Source of the DNA: Octopus vulgaris
Taxonomy: Eukaryota
Reading direction: 5' to 3'
Length of the DNA stretch: 64,000 nt
Assembly: GCA_951406725.2 (NCBI GenBank)
Contig: OX597840.1
Coordinates: 18,786,001-18,850,000, forward strand
The notes beneath the pieces are model-generated. The model ran no database searches. It was not told the DNA's origin and worked only from the letters and a program-made list of their open reading frames with translations. Made by a program: the position numbers and the translations under genes. This document shows positions 24,955-50,989 of the stretch, in pieces (the first letter of the stretch is position 1; every line of letters begins with the position of its first letter).

Positions 24955-26409
24955 TATATATATATATATATATATATATATATATATATATATATATATA
25001 TATATCAAAAATAAGGGTGAAAAAATTGGATATTAATTTAATAATACCATCAATTTAACACCAAGTGGTTTAGCGCATAAAAACCAGGGATACAATTCTT
25101 GGTGGTTGAGACCATAGCGGATCTATTTTTAGCGCAAGAGTCGACCACATAGTGGACACTCTCTTAAATTGTGTGTGTATGTATATATATATATATATAT
25201 ATATATATATATATGTATGTATGTATGTATGTATGTATGTATGTATGTATCTATCTATCTATCTATCTATCTATCTATCTATCTATCTATCTATCTATCT
25301 ATCTATCAATCTATATAGACAAACAATAAAAAAGAGGCAAATGGTTAAATAGGCATGGCTGTATGGGAAAGAAGCTCGCCTTGCAACCCTGTGGTTCCGG
25401 GTCCAGCTCCACTGCGCGGCACCTCGGGTAGGTACCTTCTACTATAGTTCCGGGTCGATCAATACCTTGCGAATGAATTTGGGAATCGAAAACTGGGTGG
25501 AGACCGAAGACCGTCGTATATATATATATATATATATATATATATATATATATATAGGCGTGGTGTGTGGTAAGAGACTTTCTAACCACATGGTTCCGGG
25601 TTCAGTCCCGCTTCGTGGCACCTTGGGCAACTGTTTCTATTATAGCCTTGGGCCGACCAAAGTTTTCTGAGTGGATTTGCTAGACAGAAACTGTATTTCG
25701 TCTGCCGTTACGTTCTGAGTTCAAATTCTACCGAGGTCGACTTTGCCTTTCATCCTTTCGAAGTCGATAAATAAAGTACCAGTTTCGCACTCAGGTCGAT
25801 GTAATCGACTTAATCCCTTTGTCTGTCCTTGTTTGTCCTCTCTGTGTTTAGCCTCTTGTGGGCAATAAAGAAATATATAAAATATCCCGGAAACAGCTGT
25901 AAGATCTTCTCTTGATAAATGTTATGAAATTTATTTACTGCCTTGGTTTTTTTATCCCATTCTATCAATATATATATATATATATATATATATATATATA
26001 TATATATATATATATATATATATATATATATATATATACATACATATATATATATATATATATTGTAAAAAAACCGAAGAACAAACAGAATAGGGAAAAA
26101 GAACAACAACGTGAGGACGTGGTACATGCAAAGTATTAGCAGACGATCAGGGAAGGAAAGAAAGGTAGTTTTACGTTTCGTGCAAAGCCCTTATGTTTGT
26201 ATGTATGTATATATATATATATATATATATATATATATATATATATATATATATACATATACGGTTTAAGTAATTGAGATTCAAGTGAATTCTAATGAAT
26301 TCACATGAATATGGTCCTTAACTAGGATGCACCGGAAATCTATATGGTGTTAACCATACGACAAGTGGGGTGATTACAAATAGGAAAAAAGCAACAAGAA
26401 TGGATGTTT

Positions 26410-26497
26410 TTTCGGCTGACGAGTACGAGCCATCTATATTTACTGTTTTTTTTGTAGCTTATTAAAGATGTCCTCGTACGAAACAATTGTACCGAGA
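26410..26497 (+). ncRNA. Type I hammerhead ribozyme (Penelope pLTR type), intact core
   Basis: Stem I TTTCGG/CCGAGA; CTGACGA; stem II GTACGAG/CTCGTAC; GAAA; palindromic stem III ACAATTGT; GUA cleavage after 26491. Confidence 0.8.
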
Positions 26498-27467
26498 TTT
26501 TAATCCATTCTTGTTGTTTTTTCCTATATATATATATATATATATATATATATATATATATATATATATATATATATATATATATATATATATATATATA
26601 TATATATATAAGGGCTTTACGATACATAAATGCCTCACGTTAAGAGGGACTCTTAAAGTCAAAACTACCATTATGGTAGTTTTGACTTTAAGACTCCTTC
26701 CTAGCGTGAAGCATTTATGTATAGTAATGCCCTTAATCTAAATAAATATATTTAAAAGGAATAATTAATAAATGTTTCCCTTATGAGGTTTTTCACGCTA
26801 ACTACTTCATAATTCTTATAAAGATTTTATCCTACTTTTCAAAACAAATATATATATATATATATATATATATATATATATATATATATATATATATATA
26901 TATATATATATATATATATTGCAGCAATCTCAAGATTAATCAGCCGGAATTGCGAGGATGATCCGGTACTTGACTGAAGATTAAAGGCTGATTTTTGTAT
27001 CGTGTATTTGGATGTTTTGCGTTCTTGTCCCGTTTTGTATGATATATATATAAGTATATATATATGATATATATATATATATATATATATATATATATAT
27101 GTATGTATGTATATATATCTATCTATCTATCTATCTATCTATATATATATATATATATATATATATATATCTATCTATCTATCTATCTATCTATCTATCT
27201 ATATATATATATATATATATATATATATATATATATATATATATATAGATAGGGTGTTCAAAAAGTCTCTCCACAGTAAATGCTTTTCTCTAAGATGTAT
27301 TTCAAAACATGTATAGTGGTTCGGCAAAAGAGCCTGATACTAAGCTTACAAAGAAGTCCTGAGGTCGATTTCTTCGACTAAAACCCTTTAAGGCGATGCT
27401 CCAGCATGGCCTCAGTCTAATGACTGAAACAAATATAAAGAATGTAAGATAGTAAAAGTGACATTAC

Positions 27468-27516
27468 CTGCGAAAGCCACAAAGGCAAGAATTGATAAGC
27501 ATATAAGACGGAGCAT
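27468..27516 (-). CDS. S1A serine protease gene 1, exon 1 (signal peptide MLRLICLSILAFVAFA+G)
   Basis: ATG at 27516, hydrophobic 16-aa leader, GTAATG donor, phase 1 joins exon 2 in frame; TATA box about 50 nt upstream. Confidence 0.9.
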
Positions 27517-27565
27517 ATTGTTAGGTTGAGTGAAAGCAGAGCATTGTATGGGCCGAGTTTCAGCT

Positions 27566-47653: not shown

Positions 47654-48526
47654 GTGTATGTATGTATTTATGCGTGTATGTATGTATGTATGTATGTATG
47701 TATGTATGTATGTATGTATGTATGTATGTATGTATGTGTGTATGTATGTGTGTATGTATGTATGTATGTATGTATGTATGTATGTATTTATGTATGTATG
47801 TGTGTATGTATGTGTGTATGTATGTATGTATGTATGTATGTATGTATGTATGTATGTATGTATGTATGTATGTGTGTATGTGTGTATGTGTGTGTGTATG
47901 TATGTATGTATGTATGTATGTATGTATGTATGTATGTATGTATGTATGTGTGTATGTGTGTATGTGTGTATGTGTGTATGTATGTATGTATGTGTGTATG
48001 TATGTATGTATGTATGTATGTATGTATGTGTGTATGTATGTATGTATGTATGTATGTATGTATGTATGTATGTATGTGTGTATGTGTGTATGTATGTATG
48101 TATGTATGTATGTATGTATGTATGTATGTATGTATGTATGTATGTGTGTATGTATGTATGTGTGTATGTATGTATGTGTTTATGTATGTATGTATGTATG
48201 TATGTATGTATGTGTATGTATGTATGTACGTATGTATGTGTGTGTGTATGTATGTATGTATGTATGTGTGTGTGTATGTATGTATGTATGTATATATGTA
48301 TGTATGTATGTATGTATGTATGTATGTATGTATGTATGTATGTGTGTATGTGTGTATGTGTGTATGTGTGTATGTGTGTGTATGTATGTATGTATGTGTG
48401 TATGTATGTATGTATGGATGTATGTACGTATGTGTGTATGTATGTATGTATGCATGTATGTATGTATGTATGTATGTATGTGTGTATGTATGTGTGTATG
48501 TATGTATGCATGCATGTATGTATGTA
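47654..48526. repeat. Long (TATG)n/(TG)n microsatellite
   Basis: Direct reading. Confidence 0.98.
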
Positions 48527-49586
48527 CTGCCCACCCCCTACATATATGTAGATTTTATTCGAAGCTGATTACGAATAACATTTACGCTTTATTGAAAGTC
48601 AAAAGAAAGACTTTATACATAAATAAATATAAAATCGTAAACCTTTTCAACTTTTCTCCAATCACGGACACACGGAGAAAAAGAGTTTAAAACATTCTCC
48701 TTCATAAGTTTCAAGGAAACGATTTTTGCCAACGTAAGGGAGACAACTCACATTAACTCCGTAATGAGTTAAACACGACACTGAACGGATCGATCCTCCA
48801 CGAAACGATGTTCGACAAATGCATGTATGTGTGTGTGAATGTAAAGACACACGCACACATACACATACATACAAACGTATATCCACTGAGAGAGAGGGGG
48901 CGGCGGTGAGAGAAAATGAGAGAGAGAGAGAGAGAGAGAGAAGGAGGGAGAGAGAGAGAGGGAGGGTTCAGAAACAGCATATTTCAAAGCTAGGTGTAAG
49001 AAACCGACTGGGATGTGAACGAGAGGAACAGCTTCACATATTTCGGAGTTATTTCCCCTGAACAGTCTCATACACTTCTACTTCCGAAAAAAATATTTAT
49101 CTAACTTCTGATCACCGCCCCCAACACGCATATATATATATATATGGGTGACAGAATAGAGTGACACATTCTTTATATATAAATGTGTGTGTGTATATAT
49201 ATATGTATGTATGTAAGTATGTATGTGTCTATGTACGTATGTATATAAATATAGGATAGTGGTACAACAACGCACCAATATTTACTGGAAATAACAGTAT
49301 ATATATATATATATATATGTATATATGAAAATAATAATGCAATACGAAATTATTGCTTTCCAGTAAAAGATAGCCCGTAAGGGTAAAATTATACATATAA
49401 AAGTAAATAAATGGTACAAAGAAGCACCGATACTTACTGGAAAATAGCGATCGTAATAAATACGACGCTATTGTATAGCTTCACTGCGTATATATTAGCA
49501 AAGTCGCGTGTGTGCAACAAACATGAAAAAAATTTGTCTTACCTCTAGGAAGAACATCTGATGAATGGACAACCTAGAATCGAATA

Positions 49587-49657
49587 ATGCAGGACCGGTT
49601 TCTGACTCTTCAAATACGTTTGACAACGTAAATTTGATTTGTCCTCATCAGCTGCAT
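49587..49657 (-). ncRNA. Type I hammerhead ribozyme
   Basis: Stem I ATGCAG/CTGCAT; CTGATGA; long stem II (GAC/GTC, TCAAAT/ATTTGA, TACGTT/AACGTA; first pair G.A); GAAA; stem III ACCGGT; GUC cleavage. Confidence 0.75.
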
Positions 49658-50989
49658 ATACCTGGACAAAATTTCACATGTTGCCACATCTATGCCAGTA
49701 CACTCGTCTGAACGCCATAACGTTAACAGAACGATAACAGTGAAGAAGTTTCAATGAAAATAATAATGCAATACGAAAGTATTGCTTTCCAGTAAGAGAT
49801 AGCCCGTAAGGGTAAAATTATACATATAAAAGTAAATAAATGGTACAACGAGGCACCGGTATTTACTGGAAAATAGCAATCGTGATAAATATTAATGTTT
49901 GTTGCACACACGCGTCTTTACTAGTATATACGCAGTGAAGCTATACAATAGCGTCGTATTTATTACGATTGCTATTTTCCAGTAGATATCGTAGTGGTAC
50001 AGGATAGTGGTACAACAACGCACCAATATATATATATATATATATATATATATATATATATATATATATATATATGTATGTATGTATATATATAATTGCT
50101 TTGCAAGATTTTTTATGTGAAATCGTGTGTTGAAACAGATATTATTGTATTTCGGAATGGTCATTTTGCCAGTTTAGCCAATAAAAACACACGCACTATA
50201 TATTTGGTGTTATTTTGCTTCAGTGATATTTATTTTTTACATTAATCTTAATCTTATTTCGGCCAGAGTTCTTTCGTCACACTCCTGTGACCGCATCAGT
50301 GGTCCTTTGTTTTCTTCTTTCTTTTTTGTGTGTCTCCCCTTACTAACCGTCAGCCATTTTGTATTTCTATTGTATGTGTCTTCATTTGCGCATGCGTATA
50401 TCTCTATGTGCGTCTATGTTTAGTTAGGGTGTATGTGTGTGTGGGGGGGGCTGTAATATTTGTATCTTCTGTTTACATACGTTCGTGTAATTTGTTTTTG
50501 TTTTTGTTTTTGTATATTCTTATTTTGTTCATGTGTTTACACCCACTTATTATTATTATCATTATTATTACTTCTTTTTTTTCTTCTTTCAAATTTTCTT
50601 CCATTTCTTGCCGAGTGTCTTCCCGACTCCTAGGGCAAAGAAACTCATAGTGTATATTGGTAGGCCATTAAACCAAACTCAGTAGTTCGTTAATTTTTAA
50701 TTTTTTTTATTTATTTATTTTTTTTTAAAGTTAAATTAAAATGCATGAGCAGCAACAGTTCTCACATCGACAATGCTCTTCTCAATTATTATTATTATTA
50801 TTATTATTATTATTATTATTATTATTATTATTATTATTATTATTATTATTATTATTATTATTATGTATTTATGTATGTATGTATGTATAACAATAATAAT
50901 AGTAATAATAATAATTAAAAAAATGTATATAGTTATTTACTTCCATTTGTTTATTTATCTGTGTATTTTATTTTATTGTTTTCAGTTTT

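Follow-up and report, generated by a model that had tools for sequence, protein, structure and literature searches.

Type I hammerhead ribozymes beside inverted repeats in a 64-kb window of the Octopus vulgaris genome: probable 3′ ends of Penelope-like elements

Insertions of Penelope-like elements (PLEs) were described by Craig et al. (2021; PMC8557442) as 5′-truncated and partially tandem, often with an adjacent inverted truncated copy and with a tail of 30-40 bp at one end. The same structure, with head-to-head palindromes, was described by Arkhipova et al. (2013; PMC3846280). Hammerhead ribozymes (HHRs) of PLEs were reported to have a palindromic helix III, low activity, and a function as dimers, and to occur mostly singly, with some opposite-strand pairs (Cervera and de la Peña, 2014; PMC4209133). 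The stretch analyzed here, called the window below, comprises 64,000 nt of the Octopus vulgaris genome (assembly GCA_951406725.2, contig OX597840.1, positions 18,786,001 to 18,850,000 of the forward strand). It contains three modules in which a type I HHR lies within inverted repeats (IRs) and beside TA microsatellites. The modules are probably the 3′ ends (pseudo-long terminal repeat, or pLTR, regions, each with a type I HHR) of several PLE families, most plausibly of the Hydra clade, with the IRs being a by-product of insertion rather than a part of the element.

Three other described groups invite comparison. Elements of the Hydra clade insert at (TA)n, have canonical HHRs close to their 3′ end, and are represented in Octopus; the clade is defined by the motifs DKT and CxCX5C and by a reverse transcriptase (RT) that precedes the endonuclease (EN) (PMC8557442). 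Naiads also target (TA)n and occur in Octopus; they are described by Craig et al. as lacking canonical HHRs and as long inactive in cephalopods, and an ‘HHR_half_core’ is reported for eight families, including Naiad_Ovul, with the second half 35-50 nt away. Finally, retrozyme monomers measure 170-400 nt (Cervera and de la Peña, 2020; PMC7229834), and Li et al. (2026; bioRxiv 10.64898/2026.07.22.740005) argue that animal retrozymes originated in the pLTRs of PLEs, and accept only loci with two complete ribozymes in tandem.

Anatomy of the three modules

Hammerheads were sought with a descriptor scan of the window, and a second scanner and a covariance model were applied besides. The descriptor scan revealed type I HHRs at 26416 and 46947 on the forward strand and at 49651 on the reverse strand (modules 1-3), and also at 1534 and 63358 (both forward). 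The CUGANGA and GAAA core, a UH cleavage site, and helices I-III in type I order were found, with a G.A mismatch closing helix II of module 3. The strict descriptor gave four matches in the window and none in each of 30 local shuffles, and the second scanner gave three matches and none in each of 100 shuffles. The modules are composed of the following parts.

26410-26497, forward: module 1 type I HHR, with core 26416-26422, palindromic helix III 26483-26490, and predicted cleavage after 26491
26263-26405, reverse: module 1 inverted copy of the 3′ end, made up of the arm 26380-26405 and a one-sided extension of ~118-127 nt reaching (TA)n
26503-26527, forward: module 1 right arm, ending in (TA)n
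46821-46931, reverse: module 2 left arm, an inverted, 5′-truncated, tail-less copy of its own family's 47092-47205; loose contig ends at 46931 run into the reverse complement of 47060-47091
46932-47008, forward: module 2 HHR, with core 46947-46953, 31-nt helix II, 6-nt palindromic helix III, predicted cleavage after 46994, and an internal loop in helix I
47009-47272, forward: 3′ part of the module 2 family, with right arm 47092-47205 and then a 67-nt tail to the family 3′ end at 47272; contigs are colinear from 46934/46942 to 47227 and from 47075 to 47272
49326-49754, reverse: module 3 unit of 429 nt, with HHR 49585-49659 (core 49651), 42-nt helix II with G.A at its base, and 3′ end at (TA)n
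49754-49891, reverse: module 3 partial tandem copy of the final 138 nt, pLTR-like
49892-49991, forward: module 3 inverted copy of 49428-49527, without the last ~100 nt

The ribozyme of module 1 (core 26416) has a 6-bp helix I, a 57-nt helix II with a 7-bp proximal stem, and an 8-nt palindromic helix III. The arms of this module (26380-26405 and 26503-26527) match at 25 of 25 positions with one gap and extend helix I directly, and the entire module folds as a single hairpin (z -7.6). By analogy with the Fig. 2 legend of Craig et al. (PMC8557442), the extension beyond the left arm may be a tail. The arms of module 2 (46818-46931 and 47092-47208) are identical at 106 of 114 positions, and those of module 3 (49428-49527 and 49892-49991) at 93 of 100. 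Module 3 also holds a direct repeat that the preliminary description of this stretch did not mention, 49325-49462 recurring as 49754-49891 (130/138) with a period of 429 nt, and the inverted copy begins exactly where the tandem copy ends. A 35-nt direct repeat (49250-49284 and 49998-50032) flanks the same module; it is a diverged piece of 49412-49443 and gives no clean target-site duplication.

When the modules were searched singly against Rfam, module 1 matched Hammerhead_1 (18.8 bits, E 0.028) and module 3 matched HH9 (24.3 bits, E 4e-4), both below the gathering scores, and module 2 gave no hammerhead match; 150 of the 197 whole-window matches were read, and these were microsatellite-driven miRNA models with no hammerhead among them. 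Helix III self-duplexes were predicted at -6.4 to -11.1 kcal/mol. Repeats were compared by masked self-BLAST of the window, since microsatellites swamp a plain repeat search, and no mutual similarity among modules 1-3 was found; nor do they contain an open reading frame (ORF) of at least 120 aa. Thus, the preliminary description holds in that all three modules carry a type I HHR with palindromic helix III (confirmed by two scanners, with none in shuffles), are unrelated in sequence, lie beside (TA)n, and lack ORFs of that length. The IRs that it noted are likewise present in all three modules, but they are not long in module 1, where the arms measure ~25 nt.

Matches of this kind could arise by chance, or from assembly fold-back in a microsatellite-rich region, given that palindromes can be assembly errors and that the Rfam scores fall below gathering. 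The empty shuffles (0 in 30 and 0 in 100) argue against this reading, as do arms that differ by 1-29%, and independent public runs contain the module 2 family and its inversions, which already refutes an artefact for module 2. An origin of the modules in chance or misassembly is, therefore, scarcely credible.

The inverted repeats and the module 2 family in public contigs

Public contigs from four runs, labeled as two organisms, were aligned to module 2 at 80% likeness, yielding 1372, 1162, 1457, and 5 contigs. Module 2 represents a high-copy family, with more than 1,100 fitting contigs per DNA-type run. Contigs that follow the left arm stop short of the ribozyme, and 11, 17, and 20 of them continue instead with 47060-47091 in reverse complement, a stretch that immediately precedes the right arm. 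Those that enter the ribozyme from its 5′ side bring a different upstream sequence, shared by at least seven contigs in run X1 and at least nine in run X3, and this upstream motif is not present in the window beyond chance. Only 0, 1, and 2 contigs cross the junction between arm and ribozyme.

Fifteen of the 28 module 2 joints were read, as were 40 of 81 variant rows; 485 further rows of loose ends stand outside the counts. The 15 joints read as nine head-to-head inversions at nine different places, four same-sense rearrangements, and two partial tandems. The left arm repeats the right arm in reverse orientation, so that any ‘skip’ leading out of it into the right part is a head-to-head inversion. 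Seven of the nine inversions are such skips, restarting at 47019-47196, downstream of the cleavage site, and two are strand changes inside the ribozyme. The spacers listed measure 1-29 nt and are thus too short for a ribozyme. The four joints that start in the left arm and were marked ‘opposite strand’ read as the same-sense rearrangements, and two joints return from the 3′ end toward the ribozyme. Summed depth falls from ~100,000-140,000 near the 3′ end (47189-47220) to 1,500-34,000 over the ribozyme, a steep drop that is expected from 5′ truncation. Twelve X3 contigs stop at 47203 in (TA)n, whereas the family otherwise runs to 47272, 67 nt past the arm, giving two 3′ ends, with and without the tail. 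The run of presumed RNA type gave five contigs, one of them across the ribozyme at a depth of 2.5, which carries no weight either way on expression.

Among the variant rows read, nine fall in the module 2 ribozyme, none of them in the core or helix III; five keep or restore pairs, three lie in loops, and one removes a terminal G.U. All are one-sided, with no phased two-sided change readable, and most restore pairs lost in the window copy. The pattern is consistent with a hammerhead fold, and is not two-sided covariation.

One possibility is that the IRs are a fixed, selected part of a new element, either of the miniature inverted-repeat transposable element (MITE) kind or a hairpin RNA with the ribozyme in its loop. 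The single hairpin formed by module 1, in which the arms continue helix I directly (z -7.6), would fit such an element, as would the one contig that crosses the module 2 junction. However, module 2 copies have variable inversion points and different upstream sequences, arm lengths of ~25, 74, 100, 111, and 175 nt occur with the ribozyme outside, inside, or doubled, and the window holds both solo ribozyme copies without an IR and IRs without a ribozyme; the comparison with other copies covers module 2, not module 1. A fixed element is very unlikely. The preliminary description had treated the IRs as part of the element, a view that finds no support: the module 2 left arm is a copy-specific inverted insertion, other copies invert elsewhere and mostly without the ribozyme, and a second family (cores 9797 and 21498) occurs with and without an inverted end.

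Beyond the modules, the following motifs and palindromes were located.

1027-1770, forward: older module, with HHR 1526-1574 and an inverted arm, 1027-1201, that extends into the ribozyme (GAA and helix III)
9358-10007, forward: second long-helix-II family, copy 1, with inverted 3′ end 9358-9409 and, in forward sense, a hammerhead copy with one change in its core (core 9797, 56-nt helix II)
15394-15453, forward: decayed hammerhead with GAT instead of GAA, weak (E 0.012)
21240-21548, reverse: second long-helix-II family, copy 2, solo between (TA)n tracts, no IR (core 21498, 62-nt helix II)
26611-26847, no strand: head-to-head palindrome (26611-26733) that lacks a hammerhead and is extended by 114 nt on one side; lies between (TA)n tracts
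45219-45444, no strand: head-to-head palindrome 45291-45444 with two Hydra-type HHRs (45372-45417 forward, 45318-45363 reverse) and a 73-nt extension on the left side only
50255-50312, reverse: decayed hammerhead with one core mismatch and no IR, weak, missed by the Hydra-locus model
59076-59142, reverse: solo HHR with one core mismatch, Hydra-type 9-nt helix III, 31-nt helix II, no IR
63309-63598, forward: solo HHR-bearing fragment between (TA)n tracts, no IR (core 63358, 44-nt helix II)

About 12 hammerhead motifs were found in the 64 kb, some decayed and the weak reverse-strand motif at 50298 included, and seven of these have an intact core and site. Allowing an odd-length helix III added both arms of the 45291-45444 palindrome and the reverse-strand motif at 59134. 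A covariance model trained on 14 hammerheads from loci related to Hydra ranked 45318-45363 and 45372-45417 first (36.8 bits each, E ~1e-7), followed by 63350, 26408, 59076, and 15394; it was weak on module 3 (E 0.41) and gave E 2.9 on module 2. The same model also led to the two-copy family at 9797 (forward) and 21498 (reverse), of which one copy has an inverted 3′ end and the other is solo. Scan matches at 6393, 8650, 20193, 49710, and 23677 were dropped as being at chance level or without helices.

IRs were found in eight of the 66 (TA)n-bounded segments; four of these have a hammerhead and four do not, the latter including one that is simple-repeat-like and one that consists of two copies resembling short interspersed nuclear elements (SINEs). 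The overhangs of IR segments are one-sided (127/0, 0/114, 73/4, and 1/79). Hammerheads are enriched in IR segments (4/8 versus 2/58, Fisher p 0.001; the 21498 copy, found later, is left out), and (TA)5 lies within 350 nt downstream at seven of eight loci (background 0.25, p 4e-4, with a cut-off chosen after seeing the distances). The arm ends vary from just outside helix I (module 1), to ~100 nt 3′ of the site (module 2), into the ribozyme (1027-1770), or across all of it (45291-45444). With respect to the preliminary description, these results bear out the high motif density and, with the stated cut-off, the (TA)n targeting. The palindrome at 45291-45444, which it had grouped with the modules, does contain hammerheads, but as two complete ones head to head rather than one enclosed by arms. 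Of the three loci that it called ‘decayed versions’, 50255-50312 holds a decayed ribozyme that no IR surrounds, and 51555-51798 (38/42) and 14906-15254 (62/79) are IRs in which neither scan nor the covariance model found a hammerhead.

An inverted 5′-truncated copy, head-to-head palindromes, and a one-sided tail are the published insertion pattern of PLEs (PMC8557442, PMC3846280), and this correspondence supports the link between the hammerheads and PLEs that the preliminary description had proposed. Partial tandem pLTRs, head-to-head inverted copies, junction palindromes, and a tail at one end are shared with insertions of EN-containing PLEs (PMC3846280; PMC8557442, Fig. 2). The public contigs (for module 2 only) show 5′-truncated copies to which an inverted, likewise truncated copy is joined at varying positions, and other loci of the window have the same geometry. 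A tail at one end only is evident from the overhangs, and 47206-47272 belongs to the module 2 family. Partial tandems are represented by the module 3 direct repeat and by the two module 2 joints that go back. The window differs in its longer tails and in the shortness of both copies, of which nothing but the 3′ end is left. Most likely, the observed geometry represents ordinary, already described leftovers of PLEs that landed as truncated head-to-head pairs in TA repeats.

In the proposed mechanism, the PLE RT/GIY-YIG protein would nick (TA)n, and reverse transcription would prime on the RNA 3′ end and stop early. A second short copy would then be attached in head-to-head orientation, its priming at an internal TA-like stretch leaving it without a tail. 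The stop point of each copy would decide whether the ribozyme is enclosed, doubled (45291-45444), partly doubled (1027-1770), or absent (26611-26733). By analogy with published work, the hammerheads would cleave as dimers via helix III, trimming a tandem precursor RNA. The window motifs resemble the PLE dimer hammerheads (PMC4209133) in their palindromic helix III and in being mostly single motifs from truncated PLEs, and the opposite-strand pairs described there are those of Schistosoma, 100-700 bp apart. They are unlike them in that helix III is present (3-4 bp), so that they are not minimal HHRs, and in that helix II far exceeds 7-8 bp.

Candidate parent elements

One coding PLE relative was identified in the window.

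52314-55345, forward: near full-length, decayed Hydra-clade PLE, with RT followed by a GIY-YIG-type EN, DKT and CxCX5C motifs, stops and frameshifts, and a SINE-like repeat inserted near 52560-52970

This element has the Hydra traits, namely RT before EN, DKT, a CxCX5C linker, and CxxC and CxH near the C-terminus. It differs in family from Hydra-1_Obim and has asparagine-rich stretches between RT and EN. Its relatives were found by a full HMMER search; the nearest named ones are from Octopus vulgaris and Argonauta hians (three of the ten relative clusters looked up carry names), and none was found among viral contigs. Pfam searches with four fragments and a word-index protein search gave no match. 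Two pieces of the element recur in nearby (TA)n tracts: 55925-55989 equals 30293-30357 inverted at 100%, and 56179-56268 matches 55027-55116.

The window shares with Hydra-clade PLEs, including Hydra-1_Obim of Octopus bimaculoides (PMC8557442), the (TA)n targets, a canonical type I HHR near the 3′ end, inverted 5′-truncated copies, and a decayed member, and the motifs at 45380, 45355, and 59134 have the 9-nt near-palindromic helix III. None of the window's hammerheads is that of Hydra-1_Obim as published there. Further comparison was made with 77 marine-metagenome loci (L001-L077) with Hydra-like PLE ORFs, many near full length. Canonical hammerheads were present in 46 of the 77 (50 matches), direct repeats in 48, and any inverted match in seven, the last count being uninformative because short-read contigs break at IRs. 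A covariation count on these hammerheads is circular, since the scanner selected them by pairing, and has no bearing on the window. Helix II measures 12-25 nt in all 50, compared with 31-62 nt in modules 1-3, 63358, and the 9797/21498 family, and 31 nt in 59134. Modules 1-3 (helix II 31-57 nt, helix III 6-8 nt) fall outside the Hydra-type shape (12-25 nt and 9-10 nt), whereas the palindrome pair at 45291-45444, with a 10-nt helix II and a 9-nt helix III, is close to it. In all, six window motifs are unlike Hydra in having a helix II of 31-62 nt, most with a fully palindromic helix III of 6-8 nt.

The preliminary description named a Naiad-like RT as the mobilizer, in which case the long-helix-II hammerheads might be the ‘HHR_half_core’ motifs of Craig et al. 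Like the window, Naiads are associated with (TA)n targets, inverted structures, and Octopus, and the half-core spacers of 35-50 nt are close to the 31-62 nt seen here (PMC8557442). On the other hand, the 3′ ends of Naiad_Obim and Naiad_Ovul resemble no module (compared by eye), and five window motifs gave no exact match in the Craig et al. supplement, where line wrapping can hide matches. The reported lack of canonical HHRs in Naiads also stands against them, as does their long inactivity in cephalopods, given that the window arms are 93-99% identical. Moreover, EN precedes RT in Naiads, and the window PLE, of the Hydra clade, has the reverse order. Naiad mobilization is therefore unlikely; since parent ORFs are not linked to the modules, this exclusion covers the published octopus Naiads only.

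A stronger alternative retains the same insertion chemistry and differs from the favored explanation only in the parent element. The families would be non-autonomous and of the non-long-terminal-repeat retrozyme type: short non-coding monomers, possibly circular RNAs, mobilized in trans by a PLE protein. Such retrozymes (PMC7229834; 10.64898/2026.07.22.740005) are, like the window families, short, non-coding, low in GC, and PLE-related, with a type I HHR. The module 3 period of 429 nt, with its 138-nt partial tandem copy, is near the published monomer size, two module 2 contigs return from the 3′ end to the ribozyme, and the internal loop in module 2 helix I resembles canonical retrozyme HHRs. 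A 46-nt piece of the module 2 family (45722-45767) begins at most 4 nt from the predicted cleavage site, and no Hydra-like coding remnant adjoins any motif, in a search that used Hydra queries only. Yet self-BLAST, the scans, and the covariance model found no place in the window where two or more units with complete HHRs follow one another in tandem, as Li et al. require in their working criterion. The inverted arrangement dominates. In addition, autonomous PLEs, too, ordinarily leave truncated copies in partial tandem (PMC8557442), and module 2 depth is strongly 3′-skewed, with no step at the cleavage site. This alternative is quite possible, though short of probable, and may hold for some families and not for others.

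Several points weigh against assigning the modules to the 3′ ends of PLEs, and of Hydra in particular. At its 3′ end, the Hydra element of the window lacks an intact hammerhead, and its DNA matches none of the modules. No family is joined to an ORF, the upstream loose ends of module 2 being only 30 letters long, and the Hydra queries found no coding remnant beside any motif. A helix II of 31-62 nt, outside the Hydra range, suggests that the parent clade may not be Hydra. The window tails (67-127 nt) exceed the published 30-40 bp (PMC8557442). The enrichment of hammerheads in IR segments is explained by a shared origin, but a fixed element would explain it too, and one X3 contig (46841-47020, ~81% alike) crosses the module 2 junction, representing either an orthologous locus or a recurring junction. 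Each joint is one contig per run at 80% likeness, several with sides of less than 30 nt, and summed depth is no copy number. Finally, other copies were compared for module 2 only, the evidence for modules 1 and 3 being their geometry.

Neighboring sequences and significance

Additional traces of related insertions may be present. A 23-nt insert between (TA)n tracts (45488-45510) ends in 13 nt identical to the 3′ terminus of the module 2 family and is probably an extremely truncated insertion. The reverse-strand module 2 piece at 45722-45767 is joined to a GC-richer stretch (45768-46550), and 45730-46550 in six frames matched neither Pfam families nor Hydra proteins. The AT-rich block 21600-23690 holds a 250-nt direct repeat (21711-21961/22405-22654) and a 117-nt IR (22113-22229/23538-23653) at 94%, with a reverse-strand CUGAUGA at 23677, just outside the arm, that lacks convincing helices; this block is possibly another PLE 3′ region.

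Other repeats are also present. In a tandem array at 41335-43900, a 184-nt unit akin to a dispersed SINE-like family (25693-25875 and 17876-18179 are examples) is repeated ~13 times; the array contains no hammerhead and no tRNA by ARAGORN. The SINE-like family is abundant in the window, with two copies inverted between (TA)n tracts at 61486-61971. Remnants of non-long-terminal-repeat retrotransposon ORFs lie at 37374-39209 (reverse), 33689-35512 (reverse), and 24167-24709 (forward); the first two match RVT_1, and the first also zf-RVT. A short forward ORF at 8675-9000 may be akin to the N-terminus of a Tc1/mariner transposase.

The architecture itself is already known, as it follows the published insertion pattern of PLEs, and Octopus is among the reported hosts of hammerhead-bearing Hydra elements (PMC8557442). 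What may be new is the helix II of 31-62 nt and the density of about one motif per 5-8 kb, seen in one window picked for this feature. Literature searches among open-licence papers found nothing on octopus hammerheads beyond Craig et al. (2021); Repbase, Dfam, or the O. vulgaris repeat library could hold these families. In a repeat annotation of O. vulgaris (Bonar et al., 2026; PMC13282606), 31 Penelope-like families are listed as recently active, and neither hammerheads nor ribozymes appear anywhere in the main text. A bolder and rather doubtful proposal is that octopods carry many uncatalogued, PLE-mobilized non-coding families at about this density, and that their hammerheads form a variant of their own (a helix II of 31-62 nt interrupted by an internal loop, and a fully palindromic helix III) that falls below Rfam thresholds, module 3 being a 429-nt retrozyme monomer. 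If this were true and the window typical, the ribozyme load would rank with the densest in animals; the count reported for axolotl is 126,247 (PMC7229834).

For repeat curation, IR-bounded pieces that resemble MITEs or unknown repeats are likely to be Penelope-like insertion products. The 77 Hydra-like metagenome contigs, 46 of them with a canonical hammerhead, form a ready set with which to enlarge the published list of Hydra elements. How PLEs form inverted junctions and one-sided tails could be studied well on very short head-to-head insertions, of which there would be thousands, and cleavage by a hammerhead with a long helix II, if it occurs, would broaden the descriptors used to search animal genomes.

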